Counted from the first letter of the stretch, positions 1,787 to 42,889 are shown. The stretch is DNA of 64,000 bases from Candidatus Woesebacteria bacterium GW2011_GWF1_31_35 (GCA_001029755.1 CP011214.1:493767-557766), one strand, 5' to 3'. Notes: generated from the letters alone by a model not told the origin. A program made the numbers and translations.

Positions 1787-1984
1787 ATGTCATATTCTTG
1801 TGAGAATTGCTTTAAGAAAACTAGTTTTGGGTCTTCACAAACCCATGGACGTGGTGTTGCTGGAAAAAGATGGAAGAAAAGAGCACAGGAAACAAAAAGA
1901 ACTTTTAAACCCAATCTTCAGATGTATCATGGCATGAAGCTTTGTGCTACATGTATTAAAAAACTTAAAAATACTAAATCTTAA
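1787..1984 (+). CDS. rpmB: 50S ribosomal protein L28
   Basis: 65-aa basic protein with the pattern CxxC...SQTHGRG...KRTFKPNLQ...CxxC, matching Zn-ribbon type L28. Confidence 0.7.
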   Translation: MSYSCENCFKKTSFGSSQTHGRGVAGKRWKKRAQETKRTFKPNLQMYHGMKLCATCIKKLKNTKS

Positions 1985-31454: not shown

Positions 31455-31481
31455 TTTTCTTCAAGTGTAAAATACACATAT

Positions 31482-31540
31482 GTCATTATCTGTAGGGACG
31501 CGTATTTTACCGCCCCACAATTTGATTTTTACTTCAAAGT
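31482..31540 (+). repeat. Copy A of a ~55-nt direct repeat (hairpin plus T-rich tail), left flank of the radical-SAM cassette
   Basis: GTCAT...GGGACGCGTATTTTACCGCCCCACAATTTGATTTTTACTTCAAAGT is about 80% identical to copy B at 34266-34328. Confidence 0.6.
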
Positions 31541-31668
31541 AACGCTACCCAAGGCTAGAAAGGAAAGAGAAATAGTTGAGCGAGACTGTTTAGGTGGGAT
31601 TTTAGCTTCAAGAGTGCCAGAAGATAAATACCACACACCTGAACTCACTATATATTAAGAAAATCTTT

Positions 31669-32796
31669 TCAGATAAAGACATCGTTAGTCTGAGGTGTAC
31701 GTATCATGTAAGGTAGAAGATTAATTCCTTGTTCGTGGCCATTAGCTAAAAGATGAAGCAACAAATTTGATTCATGTCGAATGCAATAAAATGGGCAAGT
31801 TTTTTTTGGGTTAATAGATTTAGCTTTTTCTACACGAGCAGTAGAATTCCAATAGTCTTTAAAATTTATTTCTATTGAACCGATTTTTTCGTTTTCATGT
31901 CCGCGTTTGTATGGGCAGGGGTAAATTCCTTTAGGAGTTACAACAGTTCTTAATTCAACACTTGGACAAGTTTGGTAATCTTTTGGTTGATTTGGAAACT
32001 TGTTTGTTAACAAGTAATCAGTGGATTTTGGCGAAATAACTTGAAATTCATTAGTATTTAATGCCTCCAACAATGGAGTTTGTCTTACTATCTCAGATTT
32101 AGTATTTATGGATAAGGGTATGAGGTTGTGGTGTGCATCTACTGCTGGTTTATATTCAAAATAATCACAACCAAGATCTCTGGCCAATTTAGCAGCAACA
32201 AAAAGTTCTTGCACATTTGTTTTAGGTCGAGCATTGGGTAAATTTCTTTCAATTAATAAAAAGCTATATCCAAGAATACCTTTTTTTACTTTTGCGAGAG
32301 TCTCAATGTTTGCAGTTGTTTTTGAGAATGAATTGAGAATGTGTGATGGCCGAAATTTAGAATATGTTTCCTGTGTCCCCGCATCCATTGAGACACGTGT
32401 CCACTGTACACATTCAGCTATTTCGTTGGTATATCTATTCATAAGTGAACCGTTTGTTGTAAGACCGACAGAAATTCCTAACTCATACGCTTTGATAATT
32501 GGTTCTGGCATCGATTTATGAGTAAGTGGTTCACCTCCACCAATGAATATAATTCCTTTAACATCTGTATCGTGAAATTCGTCTATCAATCCAGTCAATC
32601 TTTCGTCTTCAATACCACCTTTATTAAGAAGATTGGCGTTTATACATTCAGGACATGAGAAATTGCATGCCGTAGTCGGATCTAGTTCTACAACTAATGG
32701 ACCTGATGTTTGTCGTTTTTCAATATATTCTTCAACTCTAGGTAAGAGGTTCGGTTGTAGCATTTTATGTGTAAAATTTAATACTTCAATTGACAT
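31669..32796 (-). CDS. Radical SAM enzyme with Cys-rich C-terminal region
   Basis: CNFSCPEC (CxxxCxxC) cluster, GGGEPL SAM motif, extra C-terminal cysteines (CPSVEL, CPYKRG, CPFYC). Confidence 0.75.
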   Translation of the reverse strand: MSIEVLNFTHKMLQPNLLPRVEEYIEKRQTSGPLVVELDPTTACNFSCPECINANLLNKGGIEDERLTGLIDEFHDTDVKGIIFIGGGEPLTHKSMPEPIIKAYELGISVGLTTNGSLMNRYTNEIAECVQWTRVSMDAGTQETYSKFRPSHILNSFSKTTANIETLAKVKKGILGYSFLLIERNLPNARPKTNVQELFVAAKLARDLGCDYFEYKPAVDAHHNLIPLSINTKSEIVRQTPLLEALNTNEFQVISPKSTDYLLTNKFPNQPKDYQTCPSVELRTVVTPKGIYPCPYKRGHENEKIGSIEINFKDYWNSTARVEKAKSINPKKTCPFYCIRHESNLLLHLLANGHEQGINLLPYMIRTPQTNDVFI

Positions 32797-33865
32797 GGCT
32801 ATTTAATTTATTCACTATAACACCATCGTTCGATGGTTTTGTTACATAAACCTTAACAGGTAATTCTTTTAGGGAATTAGTGACTTGTTTTGTATTACAA
32901 TTTGGAACTAGCGCAAAAGTACACCCTCCCATGCCTGTACCAGTTAATTTTGCACCAATGGCACCATATTTTAGCGATCTTGAAATACACTCTTCAATGA
33001 GATTTGTTGAAACTCCCATATAATCACGCATTAGAGTGTGACAGTGTGAAATTGAAGATCCAAGCTTATTTGCATCAATTACTTTTCCATCTAGAATATT
33101 TTTCATTTCGTTTATAGCATCATTTGTTGTATTGACATATTTCATTATTAGAGTTTCCTTGTTTGCATATCTTATGCGTTTTTTTCTTATAACATCTGCT
33201 GTATTTCTTGGTGTGAGAGTATCGACAATCACTATATCAAATCCGTCAGGGAGAACAAATTTTTCAATATTTTTTGGGGGTATAGTTGAACTATCTAAAT
33301 ATATCAAACCACCAATTCCGCATGAATACATATCCATTTGACCTGCCCCTGTTCTTAACTCCTCGGACTCGATTTTATAAGCTAGATCGCAAATGGTTGT
33401 TGTGTCCAAAATTGATCCATAAAAGTTTGCAATCGCAGCAACACTAGCAACTGAAACTGCAGCACTGCTACTTAGTCCAGCTTTTGCAGGAAGATTGCTT
33501 GTAATCTCTATAGTAATTGGATATGTTTTAATACCTAAATCACTAATTACTTTTATTGCAGCATTTGTATAATCCAACACATGGTGTGAATAATTACCGA
33601 TTTGATCTTTTAATAAATCTATCTCAGAGTTTAATGAGCCTTTAGTTTTTAATTTGAATACATCATTATTGTTTGATACTGAAGCTTTAGTTTTTAAATC
33701 AATGGCACACAAAATCGAAGGACCTGTTATCCAGTCAATATCTTCTCCTGCCAAACAAATTCTTCCTGGCGTCGTGGCTTCAATTTCCTGAAACATTTTA
33801 TATAGATTTGGCAGGAATTTTGTCGTCCTTAAAAATTTGTGAATTGTTGTTTCCAGTGAGAACAA
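32786..33865 (-). CDS. GHMP-family sugar kinase (galactokinase-like signature)
   Basis: GRICLAGEDIDW resembles the galactokinase signature GRxNLIGEHxDY; PAKAGLSSSAA GHMP ATP-binding motif. Confidence 0.7.
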   Translation of the reverse strand: MFSLETTIHKFLRTTKFLPNLYKMFQEIEATTPGRICLAGEDIDWITGPSILCAIDLKTKASVSNNNDVFKLKTKGSLNSEIDLLKDQIGNYSHHVLDYTNAAIKVISDLGIKTYPITIEITSNLPAKAGLSSSAAVSVASVAAIANFYGSILDTTTICDLAYKIESEELRTGAGQMDMYSCGIGGLIYLDSSTIPPKNIEKFVLPDGFDIVIVDTLTPRNTADVIRKKRIRYANKETLIMKYVNTTNDAINEMKNILDGKVIDANKLGSSISHCHTLMRDYMGVSTNLIEECISRSLKYGAIGAKLTGTGMGGCTFALVPNCNTKQVTNSLKELPVKVYVTKPSNDGVIVNKLNSHVN

Positions 33866-34178
33866 GTTTTATAACAACAAAAATCGCGGTTTTATCGTTG
33901 GTGTTTGCAAAAGTGTGTATGCTATTTTCTACACGAATTAAGTCTCCCTTTTGCACAGTTTCCTTTTTTTCTGTTTCTTTTTCTAACCATCTTATTTCCA
34001 GAGACCCATCAATTATAAATATCAACTCTTCTACGACATTGTGCGAGTGCCATTCTTGGGTTGTTCCCGCAGGAATTTCATTATAGTGAAGTTCGTATTC
34101 TGGTTGAAGGTAATAGTCTACCTGGGTGCCATCAGGTTTTTTCCTATGAATAGCATTTAGTCGATTTATAATTTCCAT
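33798..34178 (-). CDS. Cupin-fold protein
   Basis: WHSHNVVEEL (HxH...E) and GDLIRVENSIHTFAN cupin motifs. Confidence 0.6.
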   Translation of the reverse strand: MEIINRLNAIHRKKPDGTQVDYYLQPEYELHYNEIPAGTTQEWHSHNVVEELIFIIDGSLEIRWLEKETEKKETVQKGDLIRVENSIHTFANTNDKTAIFVVIKLVLTGNNNSQIFKDDKIPAKSI

Positions 34179-34265
34179 TATTAAAAGCTGAGCCTAAGTT
34201 TACTACTTTTTGTTTGTAAAATCAAACCCCTATAGGGTGTGTTTAATCTGTTATAATTACGTTAT

Positions 34266-34328
34266 GTCATCGCTTTCTTGTGGGACACTCATTTCACCGT
34301 CCCAACTTTTGATTTTCACTTCAAGTTT
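34266..34328 (+). repeat. Copy B of the ~55-nt direct repeat, right flank of the radical-SAM cassette
   Basis: GTCAT...GGGACACTCATTTCACCGTCCCAACTTTTGATTTTCACTTCAAGTT; perfect GGGAC/GTCCC stem followed by a T-rich tract. Confidence 0.6.
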
Positions 34329-34450
34329 AAGATTCCGGAGCCAAATAAAGACAGGTTGATTTTAGAAAGAGATAATTTGGGAAGAATAATTCATTCAGAG
34401 CTTCTTTTTAACCAAATTAAAGAAGATGTAATTGATAGTTTATAAAAATT

Positions 34451-35083
34451 TTGTATAATCATTATATGATTAACGAGGAAGAACAAGGGACGAACTCTCA
34501 GCAATCAGAAAAACCATCTGCTTCAGAAATATTTAGTGGAAAGGATGTTGTAATTGGAAGAGAATTAGTAGAACTTCTTATTGCAGACGAGGTAGGAGTT
34601 CCTGTTTATTATCACAATTATCAGAATTTAGATAAAAAGATTAATGTAATGGTAGATAGAGAGGTGGGAAATGAAGACTATTCTGTAAGACAGAAAGAGG
34701 AAAATCATGACCAGCTTTTAGGAATAATTATTCCTACAGCTGATGCCAAAGACCAGTTTATATATATAGGTATCATGGAAGACGATTTTGTTTTTCAAGC
34801 AGGTAGCGATCTTCAAGCTGAATTTAACCCAGAGTCGAATGTTAGATATACATTTGGTTGGCAAAGATTTGGCGACAGAATTGCTCAGCATGAGAATGAT
34901 TCTACAACCCCAGAACGCTATAAATTAGAGATTCTGTTCAAAGCTCATGAAGACTCCCAAAGATTTGATACGAAAGTTTTGGAGGCAGTAGAAAAAAGAA
35001 GACAAATTCATGAAGCGATACGAAAATCGAGAACTGAAATAAGGCAAAATCTCAAAGACAAACTTTTTGGTGGATCTAGTTAA
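34451..35083 (+). CDS. Hypothetical soluble protein (island cargo)
   Basis: 210-aa ORF, acidic, with no recognisable motif. Confidence 0.45.
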   Translation: MYNHYMINEEEQGTNSQQSEKPSASEIFSGKDVVIGRELVELLIADEVGVPVYYHNYQNLDKKINVMVDREVGNEDYSVRQKEENHDQLLGIIIPTADAKDQFIYIGIMEDDFVFQAGSDLQAEFNPESNVRYTFGWQRFGDRIAQHENDSTTPERYKLEILFKAHEDSQRFDTKVLEAVEKRRQIHEAIRKSRTEIRQNLKDKLFGGSS

Positions 35084-35303
35084 CAATCTTCGTGTTAAAA
35101 TACTCTCATGTCAGCCTTAAAAGTCGGGATATACAGTTCACTATTCCAAAAATAGAATTTGCTTCATCTTTTATACTTCCGTTGCCTCGTAAAGCTAGGT
35201 TTATAACACAAAGAGATTGCTTGGGTAGAATTTTAAACTCAAAAATACCTCCAACTATATATAATTATCGGTCAACATAATAAGAATTTAAGGTGTAAAA
35301 TGT

Positions 35304-35852
35304 TTGTGTATGGAGGCACCATTTGGAATAATTTTTCTTAAAAAGGCAGAATTGTTTAATTTAGTTTCAAGGTTTGATAAACAATATGGTGGTTCGCCTA
35401 GCAATAATCCTTGGTTGATTGAAAAACAAATCTTAAGATGGACATATGGACACCATAAACATCTGGGTAGTCCAATAAAGACAGAGCATTTATCGTTAGG
35501 TTCTCAGAATAACAAACTTCATGATTTTAAAATGATTGATTCAAAAGGTGGACTGAGGTCGCAATTTAAATATTTAGAAAAAAACAGTTTAACTAAGCCT
35601 CTGGAAAACTTGGTTGTAAGGGGGTTTGCCAATTATTTTAACGAGTCAGAAGGACATAATGCTATTGTCATAAACAAAGATGGTTTACTTGTAGGAGAAG
35701 TAATTGCTGACATGGAAAAGGACAATATTTTTATTAAAGCAAATTATCTCTTTTATAGTCATATGATGGATCATCTTGGTGCCACTGTAATGATGATTGT
35801 TACAACAATAGGTCTGATAAAGTTATTTATCAGTTTTTTTTATGTCAAATAA
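35304..35852 (+). CDS. Hypothetical protein with C-terminal TM helix (island cargo)
   Basis: 182-aa ORF overlapping the next gene by 11 nt. Confidence 0.4.
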   Translation: MCMEAPFGIIFLKKAELFNLVSRFDKQYGGSPSNNPWLIEKQILRWTYGHHKHLGSPIKTEHLSLGSQNNKLHDFKMIDSKGGLRSQFKYLEKNSLTKPLENLVVRGFANYFNESEGHNAIVINKDGLLVGEVIADMEKDNIFIKANYLFYSHMMDHLGATVMMIVTTIGLIKLFISFFYVK

Positions 35853-36534
35853 AATTCAACCCATAACAGACTATTTTTTATCATTATCAGCTAATCCTAT
35901 TGTTAAGGCTCTTTCACAAATCAGCGTATTTACGGCACCAGTTAATTCACTTTTTTCTGGTGAATATAGTCGTCTTAAAGAAGAAGAACTCTTAACTGTT
36001 GTTCATTCGTTACATTCAAAAATTCAAACAATTGAGCAGAGGTTTATTGATAAGGACTTCTTTTCTTCATATGACGGAAAAAGAGCTTTTGGTATGGCAT
36101 TTTCATCTTTATTAAAGGATTCTAGAAAGCAAAAATTAGAAGCTATGTCCAATCTGTTGGTAAATCTGAGTTTAAAATCAAATGTGTCTTATGATGAACG
36201 ACTTTTATTTTTGGATATATTAGATAGTCTTAACCCGTTTCAACTTACTGTTTTAGGAAGAATATATGAATTTAATAAAGAAAATAGACCAAATTTAAGA
36301 AAAATAGAACCTTCTGGTATTGCAGATTATTTTGCAGATAAGGGAATTGATAGACAATTAACACTCCAAGCAATATCTATCCTTGCAAACAATTATATTT
36401 TAAATAGAGATTCTAGCCCTGTATTAGGAGGGGGAGGGTTAACCCATCATTTTACGGATTTTGGTGAAAAATTTTATATATTTATCTCAACAGTATTGGA
36501 TAAAAATAGTGAGTATCTAAAGATAACTAGTTAG
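35842..36534 (+). CDS. Hypothetical protein (island cargo; weak resemblance to Abi-type proteins)
   Basis: 230-aa ORF translationally coupled to the upstream gene; no confident motif. Confidence 0.4.
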   Translation: MSNKIQPITDYFLSLSANPIVKALSQISVFTAPVNSLFSGEYSRLKEEELLTVVHSLHSKIQTIEQRFIDKDFFSSYDGKRAFGMAFSSLLKDSRKQKLEAMSNLLVNLSLKSNVSYDERLLFLDILDSLNPFQLTVLGRIYEFNKENRPNLRKIEPSGIADYFADKGIDRQLTLQAISILANNYILNRDSSPVLGGGGLTHHFTDFGEKFYIFISTVLDKNSEYLKITS

Positions 36535-36748
36535 GTTTGATATCCAACAATTTTGACAATGTTGTATCCAATGCTCTGGCTATATTGTATGCTGTTCTAA
36601 TAGATATATTCCTTCCCTTTTCAATATCCCAGAAATATGCTCTATGTAAGTTTGATTTTTCAGCTAGTTGTTCTTGGGTCATTCCCTTTTCCTTGCGTAG
36701 CCATTCAATTCTTTCACCTAACTTTCTGTAAATAGGTTTGTAATTCAT
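36527..36748 (-). CDS. XRE-family helix-turn-helix transcriptional regulator
   Basis: LRKEKGMTQEQLAEKSNLHRAYFWDIEKG is a canonical XRE/Cro-CI HTH. Confidence 0.8.
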   Translation of the reverse strand: MNYKPIYRKLGERIEWLRKEKGMTQEQLAEKSNLHRAYFWDIEKGRNISIRTAYNIARALDTTLSKLLDIKPN

Positions 36749-36863
36749 ACCCTAAGGGTAGTAGATTCCAAAATAAATCTTTACCAGATATATCTTGCTT
36801 TTATAGTCGTTGGAGGCGTATTATCAAGATAACATGTTCTGTTATCAGAATACTTAGATAGAT

Positions 36864-37556
36864 ATGGAAGAAATACGATTTTCAAAAAATAATGCAAAAA
36901 AATTTAGAAATATTTGGCTTGTAAGTTTATTGCTCTTTGTAGTTTCTATAATAGGTATGCTTTCAAATATTGCCACCGATAATACTGGCACATATTTTGG
37001 TCTGTTTACGCTCATTTTATCCCTTTCTGTTATCGTTGGTTCTTTGTCATTTGTTATATGGATATACAAAATAGGAAATAAAATAATTAAGAATATTATT
37101 AAGATTCTTGGAATGCTAACGGGAAGTATATTTTTTCTTATGATTTTATGGATGATCCTTTTTCGCTATGCGATTGTTGATGGAAGTTCAATGGAGCCAT
37201 CATATAAACACAATGAAATATATCTTGTTAGTAAGTTCGCCCTCAAATCTAGTGATCCTAAACGAGGAGATGTAGTTGATTATTACTTTATTAATAAAAA
37301 TAATGAGAGGATGGGTAGAATAGTGGGTTTACCACACGAAACCATTCTTGTAGCCTCTGACGAGCTTACAGTTGACGGTAATAAGCTTGATGAACCTTAT
37401 GTTGATTGGAGTGAATGGACCAAGGGAAGAGAAGAAAACATCACCCTTAAAGACGGCGAGTTTCTAGTGCTTTTTGATAAAAGGGGTGGGGACATGCAAG
37501 TTATTAAAAAAGAAAACATAATAGGTAAATTTATATTCAAGCTATACGCTAAATGA
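36864..37556 (+). CDS. Signal peptidase I (S26 family)
   Basis: DGSSMEPS catalytic Ser box and GDVVDYYF; two N-terminal TM helices. Confidence 0.7.
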   Translation: MEEIRFSKNNAKKFRNIWLVSLLLFVVSIIGMLSNIATDNTGTYFGLFTLILSLSVIVGSLSFVIWIYKIGNKIIKNIIKILGMLTGSIFFLMILWMILFRYAIVDGSSMEPSYKHNEIYLVSKFALKSSDPKRGDVVDYYFINKNNERMGRIVGLPHETILVASDELTVDGNKLDEPYVDWSEWTKGREENITLKDGEFLVLFDKRGGDMQVIKKENIIGKFIFKLYAK

Positions 37557-38173
37557 AATCTATCTTCAAAAAGTTTTTTTCAGAAATAAAAAGAATGGCA
37601 GATAATTATAGTTCATTAATTTTAATACTGATTTTAATTGTGCTTATTGCTCCTTATGCATTTCAGTTAACAAACAAGTTAAAAAATAATTATGTTTTAA
37701 ATAAAAGGTTCAAGGTAGAACTGAGGGAAAGAGAAATTGAAAAGCTTAAACAAGAAAATGTTAATAACAAAATCAATAATCTAATCCAACAATACAATAT
37801 TGAAACACTTACGAGTGGTGGGTTTGTAAAACTATTATATGAATATTTGGATGCTAAATCAGATATTGAAAGATATTACAAAGATTATAACCTGTCTTGC
37901 GCAGACTTAGCCAATGGAGTGGAATATAAATCTGACTCCACTTTTTTTAATGATATAGACTTCTCTAGATTTACACGAGATATTGCTATTGAAAATTGTC
38001 AGATAGCTAATTCAACAAAAGGTCATTATGAACAATTTATTAAAGAAAAAGGTTTGATTGAAAAACTTATTTCTGAAAACCAAAATAATACAGATCTAGA
38101 AATCAGAGATTTTATATCAAACATTTCTAGACAATTAGTATCCATAAACTTAAAATTGAGTCTATTAGATTAA
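37553..38173 (+). CDS. Hypothetical membrane-anchored coiled-coil protein
   Basis: N-terminal TM, a coiled-coil stretch, 4-nt overlap with the signal peptidase gene. Confidence 0.4.
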   Translation: MKSIFKKFFSEIKRMADNYSSLILILILIVLIAPYAFQLTNKLKNNYVLNKRFKVELREREIEKLKQENVNNKINNLIQQYNIETLTSGGFVKLLYEYLDAKSDIERYYKDYNLSCADLANGVEYKSDSTFFNDIDFSRFTRDIAIENCQIANSTKGHYEQFIKEKGLIEKLISENQNNTDLEIRDFISNISRQLVSINLKLSLLD

Positions 38174-38180
38174 CGAAATT

Positions 38181-38810
38181 ATGAAAAAATATCTGTTGAT
38201 AATATTTTTAGGAGCCCTAACACTTTCTGTATTTACTTTTATTAATAGATCTAACCCAATTATTAATGTTAAAAATACAAACCAATCACCTTCTATAAAA
38301 GATAGTTCTCAAGCAGAATGCCCTTTTTTTGTAGATAAAAACTTTCCAAAAGAATACTTTTCTAATGTATTTAATGAAGTAATGGTGTCTTACCCTCCTT
38401 CTCTGATCACTTCCAATCAAGAAATAATTCCCATTAAAGAAAGATTCAATCCATTAAAAGAACCTTTTGGCGGTGAATTTTATACGATTCCTAAAGGAGC
38501 ATATCCTTGGACCGAAAGAAATTTTGATCTAGATAACGACGAGAAGAAGGAAAGGATTTTATCTGCAGATACTGCCATGAATCACACACCAAATTTGGCA
38601 GTAATTGTTAAGGATGGATACATAATTTATAAAACCAAGGGGGCAAATGTATATATAAGTGAGGTTGGTGACCATAATGGATTTTTTCTCCATGAAAATA
38701 CCGATTGGAATAGTGGAGAATATAAAACCACTAGGTATGTTCATAAGGACGAAAAATTCATTCCTGTTTGGTTTCAAACCTCTTGTGTTGTTAGACCACA
38801 AAGTGACTAA
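38181..38810 (+). CDS. Hypothetical secreted protein
   Basis: Signal peptide MKKYLLIIFLGALTLSVFTF. Confidence 0.4.
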   Translation: MKKYLLIIFLGALTLSVFTFINRSNPIINVKNTNQSPSIKDSSQAECPFFVDKNFPKEYFSNVFNEVMVSYPPSLITSNQEIIPIKERFNPLKEPFGGEFYTIPKGAYPWTERNFDLDNDEKKERILSADTAMNHTPNLAVIVKDGYIIYKTKGANVYISEVGDHNGFFLHENTDWNSGEYKTTRYVHKDEKFIPVWFQTSCVVRPQSD

Positions 38811-39227
38811 CTCCTTGTGTGTATAAGGACTACACATGTTTGTGCCCATCCTCAAGCATCCCATCAAGGCTAGAGTCATTTTCTACAAGCAAAACAACTT
38901 CAATGCAATATCAATGCAATTGCCTAGGCAAGGGCAAGGCTACGCCCTGTGCAAATGTAATGACTATATTGCTAAGTAGCAGGTTTGGTAATTGAACTAT
39001 ACCTACCCTCCATATTAATATTTTGGTTCCCTGTGGGTATTGATATTATTTGATAGATGAGATATATTGATATAGTCAAGAGAGATTGGAGATAGAAAAA
39101 TATACAGAAAGATCTCCAGTTTTCTCCATTACACAAAGTAATTAATACACTAATCATTTAGCACAGCCATTGTCCCAGCTCCATTTGAGCGTTTGACCAA
39201 GGCACCGCATTAAGATTCAAAATTTTT

Positions 39228-39245
39228 AAGACGGTGTCTTTTTTG
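39228..39245 (+). terminator. Intrinsic terminator-like hairpin (AAGAC-GGT-GTCTT followed by TTTTTT)
   Basis: 5-bp GC-containing stem and a 6-T run. It sits at the end of a 450-nt ORF-free GC-shifted segment, inside the 9-bp inverted repeat TTTGACCAA/TTGGTCAAA. Confidence 0.4.
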
Positions 39246-39261
39246 TTGGTCAAATATTTAT

Positions 39262-39444
39262 ATGATTAATGATACTAGTCAAGCTATATTAACAAGCCCA
39301 GAACCCCTTGTAGTGGCTCAAAAGTGTCCTGTGTGTAATGGTTTCGGAACTTTAAAATATGGATCTTTAATTTGTCATGGTTGTTCTGGTAAGGGTTACA
39401 TATTGATACCTAACAATATTAGTTCAAAAAAGAACAAACAATAG
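39262..39444 (+). CDS. Small DnaJ-type zinc-finger protein (two CxxCxGxG repeats)
   Basis: CPVCNGFG and CHGCSGKG. Confidence 0.45.
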   Translation: MINDTSQAILTSPEPLVVAQKCPVCNGFGTLKYGSLICHGCSGKGYILIPNNISSKKNKQ

Positions 39445-39456
39445 AAAGTTGGAATC

Positions 39457-40011
39457 ATGACACTATACAGAATTGAAGATGTTAAAAAGAAATATCCAAA
39501 TTGGTTTTCCGCCGATTCTGAATTAACTTATGATGAACAAAAATGGATATGGGAAAATTCACTGTTACCTGAAGGCAATAACAAAGGCTTAGAACAAGTA
39601 GGTAAACAAGATAGCACAAGTATTAGTCTTATTAGAAGTGTTAGTGGTATACGGAATCTTAAAGAAAATGTAAACGAAAACCGACAGAAAAATGAAGCAA
39701 TTAAGGATCTTCAAGATTACACATACAAAACCCCCCTTAAATTCATAGCGATAAAATTAGAAACCATATTTGGCATATGGGATAAAAAGCCTTTCCACTG
39801 GATATATATAGCAGAGAACTACACTCCTAAAGCAATAAATTCTGTTTTAAGAGAGATGAGAAAACGAAAAGAAAACGGAGGTATGCCATTAGAGATACCT
39901 GGTGCCTATTTTACTAAAGTATTAACAAAGTATCACTCCAAAAGAAAATTACCCAAACGAAAAGAGATTGCATATACCAATGGAGGCATCAAACAGCAAA
40001 ATAATGAATAA
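39457..40011 (+). CDS. Hypothetical protein (island)
   Basis: 184-aa ORF, basic C-terminus. Confidence 0.4.
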   Translation: MTLYRIEDVKKKYPNWFSADSELTYDEQKWIWENSLLPEGNNKGLEQVGKQDSTSISLIRSVSGIRNLKENVNENRQKNEAIKDLQDYTYKTPLKFIAIKLETIFGIWDKKPFHWIYIAENYTPKAINSVLREMRKRKENGGMPLEIPGAYFTKVLTKYHSKRKLPKRKEIAYTNGGIKQQNNE

Positions 40012-40178
40012 GTTAAAAGTTCTAAAACTTAATTTCTATTCGTGCGAAGGAAATGATTATAAACATGAGGTGAATAGTTTTTACTTCAATTTGTTTGACA
40101 ATATTTTAAGAGAAATACGACAAAAGTCATTGACAATAAAGTGTGATATAAATACACTAAAGTTAACTAAAGTATAGT

Positions 40179-40355
40179 ATGAATGATGAATATCTTACAT
40201 TAGAAGAAGTTTCAAAAAAACTAAAAGTGAATAAAATCACAGTTTACAGAATGGCAAAAAGGGGAAAAATCCCTGCATTTAAATTCGGAAAAGTATGGAG
40301 AGTTGATAATAAAAAGTTAGAAAGAATGATAGAAAGAAAATTAAATGGAAAATGA
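40179..40355 (+). CDS. Excisionase-family (HTH_17 / Xis-like) DNA-binding protein, 58 aa, not in the supplied ORF track
   Basis: Translation gives MNDEYLTLEEVSKKLKVNKITVYRMAKRGKIPAFKFGKVWRVDNKKLERMIERKLNGK. The LTxxEVxxxLxVxxxTVYRxxxxGxIPAxKxGxxWR pattern is diagnostic. It overlaps the recombinase start by 11 nt. Confidence 0.65.
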   Translation: MNDEYLTLEEVSKKLKVNKITVYRMAKRGKIPAFKFGKVWRVDNKKLERMIERKLNGK

Positions 40356-41976
40356 CAAAAAAATTGTAGCTATATATGCGAGGGTATCAACTGGAAGGCA
40401 GGAACAGGAAGCAACTATTGAATCTCAATTGGATGAAGTTAAAAGGAAAATTATAGAAGATGGACATATATTACCTGATGAAAATATCTTTATAGATGAT
40501 GGATGGTCTGGCGAACTTATAGCTAGACCAGACCTAGACAGAATGAGGGATTTTGCTTTGACGGGAAAATTTTCTGCTTTATATGTTTATGACAGGGGAA
40601 GATTATCAAGAAGATTTACTCATCAAGAAATAGTTATTGAGGAACTGTCCGATAAAGAAATTGGTTTTATTTCTCTTCATGATATTAATGCACTGACTCC
40701 AGAAGAACATGTTTTGCAAGCAATGCAGGGTGTATTTCACGAATATGAAAGAGTAAAAATTGTTGAAAGGATGAGAAGGGGGAAATTATTTAAAGCAAGG
40801 AACGGAATAGTAATTAGTGGCGATGCTTTGTATGGTTATAAGTATGTTAAAAAGACTGATACTACTCCTACACATTGGGCAATAGATGAAAACGAGAGCG
40901 AAGTGGTTAAGAAAATGTTTAGGTGGTTTGTGATAGATAAAATAGGCATTAACGCAATTATTAACAAGCTATCTGATGAGGGAATTCCAACAAAAAAAGG
41001 TAAGAGTAAACATTGGACTAAAGGACCAGTTAGTAGAATATTGTGTTGTGATACTTACTTTACTGGAGTGGCTTACTACAATAAATCAGAGTCAATTGTA
41101 AGTAAACGAAGGTTAAAGAATGAAAAGTATTTCAAAATCAAGAAAAATAGTCGTAAACAACGACCTAAAGAGGAATGGATTCCATTTGATGTGCCGATAA
41201 TTATAGAAGATAAATCTTTTTTTGATAGATCACTTCAACTATTAAATTACAACAAAAAATTTGCCAATAAGAATAAAAAATTTGACTACATTCTTTCAGG
41301 AAAATTTTACTGTGAACACGGCTTCCCAATGGTTGGAGATGGTAAACAAGGCAGTCAAAGATATTATCGTAGCAGTGATAAAGTTCGCAGGAACGAATTA
41401 AGAACTTGTGATTGTGAGGGGGTGAATGTTTTTGTTGTTGAGGGTCTTTGGTGGAAACATATTAAGGATATAATATCTAATCCTGATTTTATAAAACTGA
41501 AAATTAAAGAATATGTTGAATCAAGAGCAGGAGTTAATACATCATTTGAACAAGACATACTTATAAATAAAACAAAGATCTCTAATTTAACTGATCAGGA
41601 GTCAAAATTTGCACAAATGTATGCTGAGAATTTGATTGATCTTGATCAATTGAGAGGATTGATTAAACAAGTAAAAGATAGGAAATTCATATTTACACGG
41701 AATCTTAAAAAACTAGAAAGAATTAAACCAGTAAAAGTAAGAATTAACGATGAAGAAATATCTCTACTTTACGATAAGGCAAGAGAGGTATTACAATCAC
41801 AAGACTTTTCGGATAAAAATTTGGTGTTACGAGATTTAGTGAGTAAAATAGTATTAAAGAAAGGAGGAGAGGTAAATACATGGATAAATATACCAATAAA
41901 TACCCAATACTTGGAACATGGGACTGAGCGTAGGGATAGTAGGTCTTCCAAATGTGGGGAAGTCCACACTTTTTAA
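40345..41976 (+). CDS. Large serine recombinase (resolvase/invertase catalytic domain, recombinase domain and zinc ribbon)
   Basis: IYARVSTGRQE catalytic Ser motif, DRLSRR-like block (DRGRLSRR), GYKYV recombinase domain, Cys clusters; the 3' end overlaps ychF by 59 nt. Confidence 0.8.
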   Translation: MENDKKIVAIYARVSTGRQEQEATIESQLDEVKRKIIEDGHILPDENIFIDDGWSGELIARPDLDRMRDFALTGKFSALYVYDRGRLSRRFTHQEIVIEELSDKEIGFISLHDINALTPEEHVLQAMQGVFHEYERVKIVERMRRGKLFKARNGIVISGDALYGYKYVKKTDTTPTHWAIDENESEVVKKMFRWFVIDKIGINAIINKLSDEGIPTKKGKSKHWTKGPVSRILCCDTYFTGVAYYNKSESIVSKRRLKNEKYFKIKKNSRKQRPKEEWIPFDVPIIIEDKSFFDRSLQLLNYNKKFANKNKKFDYILSGKFYCEHGFPMVGDGKQGSQRYYRSSDKVRRNELRTCDCEGVNVFVVEGLWWKHIKDIISNPDFIKLKIKEYVESRAGVNTSFEQDILINKTKISNLTDQESKFAQMYAENLIDLDQLRGLIKQVKDRKFIFTRNLKKLERIKPVKVRINDEEISLLYDKAREVLQSQDFSDKNLVLRDLVSKIVLKKGGEVNTWINIPINTQYLEHGTERRDSRSSKCGEVHTF

Positions 41977-42889
41977 TGCTCTTTTAAAAAAGCAACTTGC
42001 ATATGTTGCTAATTTTCCATTTGCAACGATAGAACCTAATATTGGAGTTGTTCCTGTTCCTGATGAAAGACTTACTAAATTATCTAAAATATATAATTCT
42101 CCAATTGTTCCAGCTACTGTTCAATTTGTAGATATTGCAGGACTAATTGCAGGAGCTTCTAAAGGAGAAGGACTTGGAAATAAATTTTTAAGTCACATTA
42201 GAGACGTATCCGCAATTTGTCATGTAATTCGAGTATTTACTGATCCTGACATAATAAAGCAAGGAGTAGTAAGTCCTAAAGATGATTTTGAAATAGTTAA
42301 ACTTGAATTGGATTTAGCTGATCAGCAAACTTTAGAAAATCATGAAAAGAAAAAAAATAAAGATATTGAGAGTTTACCTTTATTTTCTAAAAAACCTATT
42401 TTAATTGTTTTAAATATTGATGAAAAAGATTTAGTTAAGGCAGAAGAATTGGAAGGTGAGTATGCTACCAAACTTGGTGTTTTAAAAGATCAAGTCGTTG
42501 CAGTATCTGCAAAAGTTGAATCAGAACTATCAGAACTTTCAGAAGATGATCAAAAATCATATCTTTCCGATTTAGGTGTTAAAAACTCAGGACTTGAAAG
42601 ACTTATTCAAAAAGCATTTAAAACATTAGGATTAATTACCTTTTTAACTGCAGGTGAAAAAGAAGTTAGGGCTTGGACTATTAAAGATGGAATTACAGCT
42701 CAGGAGGCATCTGGTGTTATTCATACTGATTTTATGAATAAATTTATAAAAGCTGATATTTGTAATTTTAATGATTTTATAGAGAATAATGGATGGAAAA
42801 ACGTTAGAGAATTAGGAAAGGTAAGAAGCGAAGGAAGAGATTATATAGTTAAAGATGGAGATGTTGTTGAATTTAAAATTGGAAGTTAA
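41918..42889 (+). CDS. ychF: Ribosome-binding ATPase YchF (Obg-family GTPase)
   Basis: GIVGLPNVGKSTLFNAL G1 motif and a TGS-like C-terminus. Confidence 0.85.
   Translation: MGLSVGIVGLPNVGKSTLFNALLKKQLAYVANFPFATIEPNIGVVPVPDERLTKLSKIYNSPIVPATVQFVDIAGLIAGASKGEGLGNKFLSHIRDVSAICHVIRVFTDPDIIKQGVVSPKDDFEIVKLELDLADQQTLENHEKKKNKDIESLPLFSKKPILIVLNIDEKDLVKAEELEGEYATKLGVLKDQVVAVSAKVESELSELSEDDQKSYLSDLGVKNSGLERLIQKAFKTLGLITFLTAGEKEVRAWTIKDGITAQEASGVIHTDFMNKFIKADICNFNDFIENNGWKNVRELGKVRSEGRDYIVKDGDVVEFKIGS

Follow-up and report, generated by a model that had tools for sequence, protein, structure and literature searches.

Composite direct repeats upstream of ychF in a Candidatus Woesebacteria genome: probable attL-type junctions of large serine recombinase elements

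Why does a conserved repeat recur in one orientation on either side of a gene cassette in Candidatus Woesebacteria bacterium GW2011_GWF1_31_35, and what placed it there? In the 64,000-nt stretch analyzed here (the window), the initial annotation described two direct repeats of ~55 nt in the same orientation. Their repetition and orientation hold up: gapped local alignment of the two copies (A and B) scores 43, against 29 for the best other placement anywhere in the window on either strand. (An ungapped repeat finder failed on this pair because of a 3-nt indel between the copies, and was replaced by gapped alignment.) A 43-nt IUPAC core pattern matches copies A and B only, with 0 matches expected from 100 shuffles. 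The repeat itself is real, but the proposed length is too short and the count of two incomplete, as the unit spans ~190 nt and a third, more diverged copy (C) lies at ~35093-35280. A nucleotide profile built solely from relatives outside the window recovers unit A at 31468-31648 (E = 1e-37), unit B at 34249-34405 (E = 2.5e-34) and unit C at 35092-35275 (E = 2.9e-16), the next best match having E = 0.15. By this profile and a six-frame HMM, the window holds three copies, all inside 3.8 kb, co-oriented with ychF and 6.6-10.5 kb upstream of it:

31463-31658, plus strand: repeat unit A
34249-34445, plus strand: repeat unit B
35093-35280, plus strand: repeat unit C

Each unit falls into two parts, and the reading frame that is conserved differs between them. 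No tRNA was found at the repeat site.

The copies had been taken to resemble intrinsic terminators, with copy A ending the ABC transporter operon. In both A and B an inverted repeat, GGGAY…RTCCC, is indeed followed by a T-rich stretch, and 94% of cells are pairable across 15 copies, as would suit terminators or a REP-like family of structured intergenic repeats. The inverted repeat behind the proposed GGGAC/G(T/C)CCC stem is thus present, but a stable or covarying hairpin is not: neither copy passes a terminator scan, the fold z-scores of the copies are only -0.7 to -1.9, the repeats have no match in Rfam, and covariation is not beyond chance (390 of 500 shuffles reach the covariation score). 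With no terminator call, weak folds and no covariation, the assignment of copy A as the terminator of the ABC operon falls away, and copies B and C sit before genes, not after them. Variation among the copies is codon-position-specific (400/228/623), and what looked like a stem and a T-tract encode …R/W-D…F-T-V-P-x-F-D-F-Y-F-K… in one frame, which is under purifying selection. Nor are there the many dispersed copies expected of a REP-like family: at every locus examined, copies occur only upstream of ychF, and REP- or MITE-like scatter was seen neither in the 64-kb window nor at those loci. Because of the coding signal, we regard the terminator or REP-like reading as refuted and give it almost no weight.

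The two parts of the unit resemble the ends of two different genes. The left ~35 nt, comprising a TGnTAnAAT box, 6 nt, an ATG, the codons MS(x)LS[VC]G and GGGA, match the native ychF 5' end of related Microgenomates. At the loci that served for native-site (attB) comparison (L009, L010 and L018-20, from species other than that of the window), ychF itself begins with the box, six nucleotides and an ATG, followed by MSLSVG, MSQLSCG or MNISCG and then GG(G/A/C)A. Left halves of the units are 62-91% identical to the L009 ychF 5' end, over a background of 45% (s.d. 8%). The three left halves in the window are as follows:

31463-31498, plus strand: left half of unit A, with GTG-TAAAAT box 31465-31473, 6 nt, ATG 31480, MSLSVG and GGGA 31495-31498; 79% identical to the native L009 ychF 5' end (background 45%, s.d. 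8%)
34249-34285, plus strand: left half of unit B, with TGTTATAAT box 34249-34257, ATG 34264, MSSLSCG and GGGA 34282-34285; 65% identical to native ychF 5' ends
35093-35129, plus strand: left half of unit C, with TGTTAAAAT box 35093-35101, ATG 35108, MSALKVG and GGGA 35126-35129; left-half profile match E = 2.4e-07

Unit A begins 9 nt past the stop codon of an ABC-3 permease gene. Between the ATG and GGGA, differing codons are synonymous/non-synonymous in the ratio 86/72 in the ATG frame, versus 2/202 in the frame of the right half (frame X). A small ORF of 20-31 aa starting at the conserved ATG was considered and rejected: it is open in all copies, yet only its first 6-7 codons are frame-conserved. 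The TGnTAnAAT box is presumably the ychF promoter, which would drive a leaderless mRNA and, in its displaced copies, would now fire into the cargo.

The right ~160 nt (the X-core) are coding sequence under purifying selection, with dN/dS of 0.24 in frame X; differing codons there are synonymous/non-synonymous 907/1204 in frame X versus 191/1985 in the ATG frame. The window contains three:

31497-31658, plus strand: X-core A, DAYFTAPQFDFYFKVTLPKARKEREIVERDCLGGILASRVPEDKYHTPELTIY then stop (six-frame HMM E = 2.9e-32)
34284-34445, plus strand: X-core B, DTHFTVPTFDFHFKFKIPEPNKDRLILERDNLGRIIHSELLFNQIKEDVIDSL then stop (HMM E = 1.6e-27; nhmmer E = 2.5e-34)
35128-35280, plus strand: X-core C, DIQFTIPKIEFASSFILPLPRKARFITQRDCLGRILNSKIPPTIYNYRST then stop (HMM E = 1.1e-28)

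Elsewhere, unsplit genes for a large serine recombinase (LSR) carry the homologue of the X-core as the last ~50 residues of the protein. An exhaustive profile search returned seven sequences in which the LSR C-terminal region runs unbroken into the X-core (P0192, P0220, P0172, P0135, P0150, P0248 and P0249), all of them fragments or stop-broken ORFs on short contigs, with no full-length unsplit protein found. At these unsplit junctions a ychF-like leader (MNLSVG; MGLSIGIVGL) lies in the +1 frame. At three loci (L024, L026 and L028), the ORF preceding the X-core carries Recombinase and Zn_ribbon domains. When the window's own LSR is fused to X-core A, B or C, it again aligns from end to end with the unsplit tails; the reconstruction LSR(…TERR) plus X-core C is one such case, and by its position X-core C is likely the partner tail of this recombinase. 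A search of the second half of the repeat against a viral collection gave no match. Three viral-contig matches to a 23-nt hairpin core had suggested coding on the minus strand (…W-D-G-E-I-S-V-P), where there are no long ORFs; the matches are noise against the family profile, and their number is about that expected by chance for 17 specified bases.

Purifying selection on the X-core (dN/dS 0.24) could also mean that the units are independent small protein genes of ~55-65 aa, each heading a two-gene operon with a variable second gene, their likeness to ychF and LSR being secondary. Translation would then start at an ATG, GTG or TTG inside the box (M-L-K-Y-T-H-V…), or at the conserved ATG, with a programmed -1 shift of frame at N_GGG_A, a possibility that was taken seriously, as both frames are selected. 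The X-core is open in almost all copies, recombinase-less modules included, its end adjoins or overlaps the start of the next gene, and gene calls in 118-221 database clusters give proteins of 42-85 aa. An in-frame start overlaps the box in 9 of 14 copies, but four (units A and B of the window, L010 and L017_8929) have none; of these, three lack any start before the nearest upstream stop and unit B has only a TTG just before the core. The remaining copy, L012_9158, has the box in another frame and only a distant in-frame TTG. The junction, moreover, has no slippery heptamer, and the ATG-GGGA segment is selected in the ychF frame and not in frame X. The X-core itself belongs to no Pfam family, PHROGs, NCBIfam and PADLOC likewise gave no informative family for it, and in an AF2 model the beta-hairpin alone is confident (pLDDT 74.8). 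Since the leader corresponds to the N-terminus of ychF, and in unsplit genes the X-core continues the LSR ORF, both frames are explained without recoding; frameshifting was therefore dropped as the primary reading, and small independent genes appear an unlikely account of the units.

At the ychF end of the array, the window carries the genes to which both halves of the repeat point:

40179-40355, plus strand: HTH_17 (excisionase/MerR-like) gene, directly upstream of the recombinase (Pfam match)
40345-41976, plus strand: large serine recombinase, 543 aa, with Resolvase, Recombinase and Zn_ribbon_recom domains
41900-41960, plus strand: attR-type junction, the recombinase 3' end with an element-borne ychF-like leader
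41918-42889, plus strand: ychF, the target gene (Pfam MMR_HSR1 and YchF-GTPase_C)

The recombinase has the domains PF00239, PF07508 and PF13408 and matches the PHROG 95 integrase (E = 1.9e-67); the HTH_17 protein is a candidate directionality factor. The LSR gene abuts ychF, and its last 14 codons (…RRD followed by SRSSKCGEVHTF and a stop) run across the start of ychF in its -1 frame; the X-core stands in that relation to its own leader as well. In the leader at this junction the ATG lies at 41918, followed by MGLSVG, GGGA at 41933-41936 and then ychF proper (IVGLPNVGKS…). Four other loci (L012-15) share this LSR/ychF layout, and downstream of ychF the window has rpsF-ssb-rpsR, as in related genomes. 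The best dyad of the reconstructed attP has its center on the GGGA junction, yet its symmetry is weak, with 18/34 pairs (P ~0.09); other sites are not significant.

Comparison with other genomes locates the exchange. Wherever ychF is in range, the unit copies always lie upstream of it and in the same orientation, at distances of 0.6-10.5 kb, and arrays of stacked modules are also present at L009, L011, L012 and L018. In a related lineage, the strain pair L026 and L028 is 99.76% identical over 6,687 nt, and the identity stops exactly at …ATGAACCTATCGGTCGG (…TCGG), the junction between leader and X-core; beyond it, identity falls at once from 99.8% to ~60%, with two different X-cores and different genes. 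A same-species variant of the window (L016) is 98.6% identical to it from 31521 rightwards, keeping the linkage of X-core A with the radical-SAM gene, and diverged to the left, where a NUDIX gene stands instead of the ABC transporter. Its breakpoint, 23 nt rightward of GGGA, falls within TTTGATTTTTACTTCAA, the 17-nt stretch where the repeat is most conserved, and has the look of homologous recombination more than of a site-specific event. One could suppose from this that the units are paralogous blocks shuffled by homologous recombination alone between diverged duplicates, with no site-specific recombinase involved. That account, however, leaves unexplained why the left half is a ychF start, why the LSR abuts ychF in the matching frame, and why L026 and L028 part exactly at the leader/X-core boundary, and we judge it even less plausible than small independent genes. 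Probably both processes operate, homologous recombination supplementing site-specific exchange without replacing it. Within the species of the window the layout is uniform: it recurs in all of the 24 longest contigs per marker for three markers (ABC-3, cupin and the 205-aa cargo protein), with no empty site, circular junction or alternative arrangement among them. Four distant ABC-3 relatives (L002-L005), in which both the motif and the synteny are absent, were uninformative.

Because the LSR gene runs into the ychF start in the frame of the X-core, and the strain pair diverges at the junction, we take the repeats to be attL-type. Each would be a hybrid junction formed when an LSR element integrated into the first codons of ychF, a reading to which we assign a probability of roughly 80%. 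The initial annotation had also raised, in substance, what these hybrids of a ychF 5' end and an LSR 3' tail now support: insertion of the cassette by recombination at a repeated element, or, alternatively, att-like sites of an island. The left ~35 nt would be the host side, running from the promoter-like box of ychF over 6 nt, the ATG and the first 6-7 codons to the invariant GGGA. The right ~160 nt would be the element side, the last ~50 codons of the LSR, whose reading frame would span its own attP, so that integration would split the recombinase ORF. The body of the recombinase would stay beside ychF at attR, where the element would replace the first codons of ychF (in the window, by MGLSVG) and the LSR ORF would end 14 codons on, in the -1 frame of ychF. 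The X-core tail would end up at the opposite end of the insert, preceded by the displaced ychF start, from whose frame it is offset by one base.

Junctions A, B and C would accordingly bound three modules stacked upstream of ychF:

31497-34281: module A, with X-core A, radical-SAM, GHMP and cupin genes reversed, then a box
31669-34178, minus strand: cargo of module A, radical SAM 31669-32796, GHMP kinase 32786-33865 and cupin 33798-34178 (Pfam); gene callers place the GHMP kinase start later (336 aa)
34282-~35125: module B, with X-core B, one gene, then a box
34466-35083, plus strand: cargo of module B, a 205-aa protein with no family match (gene call)
~35126-41935: module C, a 6.8-kb LSR element with X-core C, cargo, HTH_17, then LSR
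35304-40177: cargo of module C, namely two proteins without assigned function (35304-35852 and 35842-36534), an HTH_3 regulator (36527-36748, minus strand), signal peptidase I (36864-37556) and further proteins without assigned function (37553-38173, 38181-38810, 39262-39444, 39457-40011 and 39968-40177)

Against Pfam, PHROGs, NCBIfam and PADLOC, the only informative cargo matches were signal peptidase I and the generic radical-SAM, GHMP and cupin families; NCBIfam and PADLOC gave only sub-threshold matches for the cargo of module A. The window's LSR presumably catalyzed these insertions, and module C may still be mobile. Modules A and B, which have no recombinase, could, like SCC elements, have moved in trans or through att pairings of lower selectivity. 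Canonical recombination between attP and attB does not account for the ychF-type box at the right end of the recombinase-less modules. The X-cores of these modules are still open and protein-like; inert scars would not be expected to stay so unless they were recent or put to use again.

In staphylococci, SCC composite islands consist of stacked cassettes moved by the Ccr large serine recombinases, and pseudo-SCC elements are thought to be moved in trans. As in SCCmec and other SCC elements (see also PMC10581047), LSR insertion here would occur at one end of a conserved housekeeping gene, the modules are stacked, each is bounded by a direct repeat of integration-site sequence, and some lack a recombinase. 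Unlike SCC, where the target is the 3' end of rlmH, the repeat a 15-20-nt integration-site sequence and the recombinase genes ccrAB, the target here is the 5' end of ychF, the ~190-nt repeat contains a fragment displaced from the recombinase gene itself, the array sits in a CPR bacterium, and one LSR gene and one HTH_17 gene are present. The array would thus class as an SCC-type composite island, its closest analogue, by architecture and not by Ccr family. In following the Islander logic (PMC4383910), and like integrases at the dusA 5' end (PMC4482086) and tycheposons (bioRxiv 10.1101/2020.12.28.424599), the elements would duplicate a fragment of the target gene at the distal island end, supply a replacement that keeps the target functional, and regenerate a site whose reuse yields arrays of cargo modules. 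Those systems mostly use tyrosine integrases at tRNA/tmRNA genes or dusA, whereas a serine recombinase is involved here, the host fragment comprises only the promoter and 6-7 codons, and the element-side half is recombinase coding sequence. Integration at ychF has itself been reported: it is an LSR target of pipolins (PMC11551731), and a pneumococcal prophage int adjoins it (PMC8637289). There too, LSR elements attach at or just upstream of ychF, with the recombinase gene beside it; hosts and cargo differ, and the available portions of the two reports describe neither a cassette array nor a split recombinase ORF.

Like integrons, the locus has a co-oriented, mostly promoter-less cargo array, a conserved recombination site and promoter before each module, and a recombinase nearby. 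Its enzyme, however, is a serine recombinase rather than the tyrosine recombinase IntI, it is anchored in a housekeeping gene, and it has no attC hairpins (the inverted repeat shows no structural covariation); the serine enzyme and the absent covariation rule out an integron as such. The splitting of a gene by integration recalls mycobacteriophage BPs and its relatives (PMC4557955), in which attP lies inside a phage gene in integration-dependent immunity. There too, integration alters the C-terminus of the product, and the integrated and free states yield different isoforms; by contrast, the gene split in BPs encodes the repressor and the integrase is a tyrosine enzyme, whereas here the serine recombinase itself is split. 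For a recombinase ORF split by its own integration, no serine-integrase precedent was found in the literature searched. That the split has a regulatory consequence here is conjecture. As a tentative extension, which we consider possible rather than probable, the LSR ORF would span its own attP and exchange its ~50-residue tail for a short ychF-derived one upon integration, giving state-specific isoforms that might aid directionality; displaced tails behind ychF promoters would act as reusable docking sites, and the LSR would shuffle recombinase-less cassettes through attP x attL-type pairings, producing an integron-like, promoter-supplying array at an essential gene.

A family of 'hypothetical small proteins' in Microgenomates, at least 221 clusters at 50% identity, can be re-annotated from the composite nature of the repeat: they would be displaced ends of recombinase genes together with copies of the ychF start. 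Little is known of the mobile elements of CPR genomes, and the repeat also provides a simple tag in the sequence for where their mobile modules begin and end. Since genetic tools for CPR bacteria are scarce, defined attB/attP pairs together with a native integrase would be useful. The split recombinase ORF, reminiscent of integration-dependent immunity, suggests a possible coupling of enzyme form to integration state, and the stacked modules, some of them without a recombinase and each behind a copy of a housekeeping promoter, may serve as a model of accessory-gene turnover in streamlined CPR genomes.

The repeats on either side of the radical-SAM/GHMP-kinase/cupin operon, initially annotated as a ~55-nt pair, are real but extend further. 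Copies A and B, in the same orientation, align with a gapped local score of 43, against at most 29 when copy A is compared with the remaining 200-nt tiles of the window, both strands included. No place in the window (G+C, 30.7%) besides these two copies fits a 43-nt degenerate core pattern, and shuffles give an expectation of zero. A 3-nt indel hides the pair from an ungapped repeat search. A metagenome scan with a pattern covering both conserved halves returned three loci (L009–L011), whose likeness to the window runs over 130–165 nt, far beyond the right edge first drawn. Six-frame profile searches found exactly three family members in the window (31455–31655, 34257–34442 and 35080–35277), and a nucleotide profile built without the window units recovered all three (E 1e-37, 2.5e-34 and 2.9e-16; next best, E 0.15). 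The third, unit C, is likely the distal junction of a recombinase-bearing element.

Repeat units and recombinase in the window, on the strand of ychF
31463–31658, unit A
34249–34445, unit B
35093–35280, unit C, a third and more diverged copy absent from the initial annotation, directly upstream of a 182-aa ORF at 35304
40345–41976, large serine recombinase (LSR), 543 aa, with Resolvase, Recombinase and zinc-ribbon domains (PHROG 95 integrase, E 1.9e-67)

The reading of the copies as terminator-like elements was rejected. A terminator scan calls neither copy A nor copy B, folds on either strand are no better than shuffles (z-scores −0.7 to −1.9), Rfam gives no match for the repeats at either threshold, and the covariation score of the GGGAYR/YRTCCC stem across 15 copies was reached by 390 of 500 shuffles. 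Pairing is possible in 94% of cells of this stem because its columns are near-invariant. A near-identical 27-nt palindromic element in three IMG/VR contigs (ATGGGACGGATATTTCACCG[CT]CCCAT, then a T-rich run; L006 2207–2239, L007 3667–3700 and L008 1340–1372) is unrelated to the family, its profile scores being noise; a role as terminator or operator of a phage is possible.

Each unit comprises two halves read in different frames. The sequence from the motif F-T-V-P on codes for protein in a single frame (frame X). Differences are spread 400/228/623 over the three codon positions, the median dN/dS of 0.24 compares with 1.3 and 2.0 for the other two frames, and differing codons are 907 synonymous to 1204 non-synonymous, versus 191/1985 and 103/2055. 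The upstream part common to all full-length copies consists of a TGnTAnAAT box, 6 nt (8 and 7 in two copies) and an ATG in the +1 frame relative to X; this ATG and the next 5–6 codons form a leader (MSLSVG, MSSLSCG, MSQLSCG, MSSLEVG, MSALKVG, MGLKIG or MSSIKCG) before an invariant GGGA. Between ATG and GGGA the selected frame is that of the ATG, with 86 synonymous and 72 non-synonymous differing codons versus 2/202 in frame X. A start in the box giving entry to frame X is absent in 4 of 14 copies (units A and B, L010 and L017_8929), and the box of a fifth, L012_9158, is out of frame with X. A programmed −1 frameshift was considered; the simpler explanation, that a ychF start adjoins an LSR tail, was preferred. 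In unit A alone, the box has lost its spacer base through a 1-nt deletion relative to other copies, giving GTG TAA, and a perfect 9-bp inverted repeat (GTAAAATAC / GTATTTTAC, 31467–31475 and 31500–31508) lies either side of the leader.

Native ychF of related genomes opens with the same sequence as the left half. The L009 gene begins TGTTAAAAT-ACAAAC-ATG TCA CTT TCT GTA GGG ATT GTC GGA… (MSLSVGIVGLPNVGKS), and other native N-termini are MSQLSCGIVG (L010) and MNISCGIVG (L018–L020). Left halves of the repeats are 62–91% identical to the L009 5′ end (unit A, 79%; unit C, 73%; unit B, 65%), against a background of 45% (s.d. 8%). In sequence, the left half is a ychF start. Native ychF of several Microgenomates is preceded by an extended −10-like box (TGnTAnAAT), with exactly 6 nt between the end of the box and the ATG and no Shine-Dalgarno sequence:

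L009, oriented ~1800–1845 (minus strand), native ychF box
L010, 1420–1465, native ychF box
L018, 11000–11045, native ychF box

This arrangement suggests that ychF in these CPR bacteria is expressed from leaderless mRNA; the box in the units would be that promoter, now driving cargo.

The window LSR gene, preceded by an HTH_17 gene, abuts ychF (ATG at 41918) and passes through its start in the −1 frame (…QYLEHGTERRD|SRSSKCGEVHTF*), the same relation as that of frame X to the leader; the layout recurs in L012–L015. Among the 221 matches of a profile search run exhaustively over 1.84 billion representatives, most are 40–110 aa long, and several longer ones are LSR C-terminal regions running uninterrupted into an X-core (the right ~160 nt of a unit), as in database proteins P0192 (…IIDKVIIQERSGVEVWAHLPLPNIQKLGYEPIGW-YFQHTIATLQFKFNFVLPAPNKERIIVQRDGKGRIIRSQIPVI), P0220, P0172, P0135, P0150, P0248 and P0249. 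In L024, L026 and L028, Recombinase and Zn-ribbon domains occur in the ORF directly upstream. When joined to X-core A, B or C, the window LSR (to …TERR) aligns end to end with the unsplit tails of P0192, P0220, P0172 and P0135 (scores 169–214 with X-core C, 149–220 over all three), whereas the unjoined ORF scores 65–168 and its alignment ends at the junction. These continuities identify the right half as the tail of a serine recombinase gene. Read in the +1 frame, unsplit junctions also contain a ychF-like leader (MNLSVG in L022, MGLSIGIVGL in L024), as should be expected of an attP that restores ychF after integration. Neither an intact full-length LSR–X-core gene nor a circular form was seen in these contigs, which are short and in which several LSRs are broken.

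The 611-aa protein P0162 is made up of nine tandem ~66-aa repeats (each …LLSCGIRGDGFSFQ.YHNLVILRDTRGWLLLSKISQP…). Every repeat joins a ychF-like leader to an X-core-like segment, head to tail along the protein, as though cargo-free att units had been stacked. The LSR genes of L026 (6200–6260) and, at the same place, L028 share an in-frame TGA (…KKCAEA*LRAETNS…) in both 99.8%-identical strains, reflecting a pseudogene common to the two or else recoding of UGA. 'Candidatus Anstonellales archaeon' (DPANN) is the label on the NCBI record, possibly through a binning error in view of the CPR-type unit.

L026 and L028 are 99.76% identical across 6,687 nt, ending exactly at …ATGAACCTATCGGTCGG|, beyond which both X-cores and downstream genes differ. 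This breakpoint, together with the identity of the two halves, upholds the alternative reading first offered for the repeats, as att-like sites of the island. L016 is the sole variant found for the species of the window. The two match at 98.6% identity to the right of 31521; on the left side, the unit of L016 begins with another 5′ end, and a NUDIX gene takes the place of the ABC transporter. Its breakpoint, 23 nt right of GGGA and within the most conserved stretch, looks like homologous recombination between paralogous units, and probably both this process and site-specific exchange act. Dyad symmetry of the att sites is weak, and no same-species empty site was found.

In every locus with ychF in range (the window, L009, L010, L012–L015, L018–L020 and L022–L023), all units lie upstream of ychF on the same strand, 0.6–10.5 kb away, and most are immediately followed by a different, unrelated gene.

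Order in the window
ABC-3 permease, unit A, radical SAM + GHMP kinase + cupin (reversed), unit B, 205-aa gene, unit C
then two unknown genes, HTH_3 regulator, signal peptidase I, further unknown genes
then HTH_17, LSR, ychF-rpsF-ssb-rpsR

In this model, a 6.8-kb element carrying the recombinase and a putative excisionase lies between unit C and the LSR/ychF junction, and units A and B delimit modules that lack a recombinase. If excision took place at any of the units, ychF would be left with a plausible N-terminus (MSLSVG-, MSSLSCG- or MSALKVG-IVGLPNVGKS). Canonical attP × attB recombination does not explain the ychF-type box at the right end of recombinase-less modules; these may reflect SCC-like trans-mobilisation or relaxed att pairing, the latter hinted at by X-core exchange behind one LSR in L026/L028. 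X-cores are still open and protein-like even in such modules, so they may to some extent be expressed on their own or serve again as recombinase tails.

The minus-strand operon at 31669–34178 has sub-threshold family matches only (radical SAM: viperin-like and tungsten-cofactor maturase; kinase: mevalonate/galactokinase-like); the 359-aa kinase ORF that begins at a TTG extends into the cupin gene, and the version chosen by gene callers has 336 aa. The recombinase-bearing module includes a signal peptidase I homologue (36864–37556; TIGR02227, 78 bits, cutoff 47) beside several secreted-looking proteins without assigned function. In the related lineage of L012–L015, the variable region upstream of ychF (for example, L012 3098–8070) encodes sortases and Ice_binding-domain surface proteins, and strains differ by a DnaJ-domain gene versus small ORFs. 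The island upstream of ychF is suggested to be a hotspot of cell-surface gene turnover.

SCCmec-type composite islands combine an LSR, a housekeeping-gene end and stacked modules between direct repeats, some without a recombinase. They are the closest architecture to the window array, which shares these features (context, PMC10581047). A displaced target fragment marks the island end here as in Islander logic (PMC4383910), dusA 5′-end elements (PMC4482086) and tycheposon arrays (bioRxiv 10.1101/2020.12.28.424599). Pipolins are reported to use ychF as the target of their LSR (PMC11551731), and the int gene of a pneumococcal prophage adjoins ychF (PMC8637289). A gene split by its own element's attP recalls integration-dependent immunity (PMC4557955); in the present case the gene concerned is that of the serine recombinase. 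Literature searches gave nothing on LSRs in Patescibacteria and nothing relevant on attP within a serine integrase gene. The points of interest are the split-recombinase design, the cassette-array architecture in CPR bacteria and a corrected annotation for a sizeable family of 'small hypothetical proteins'.
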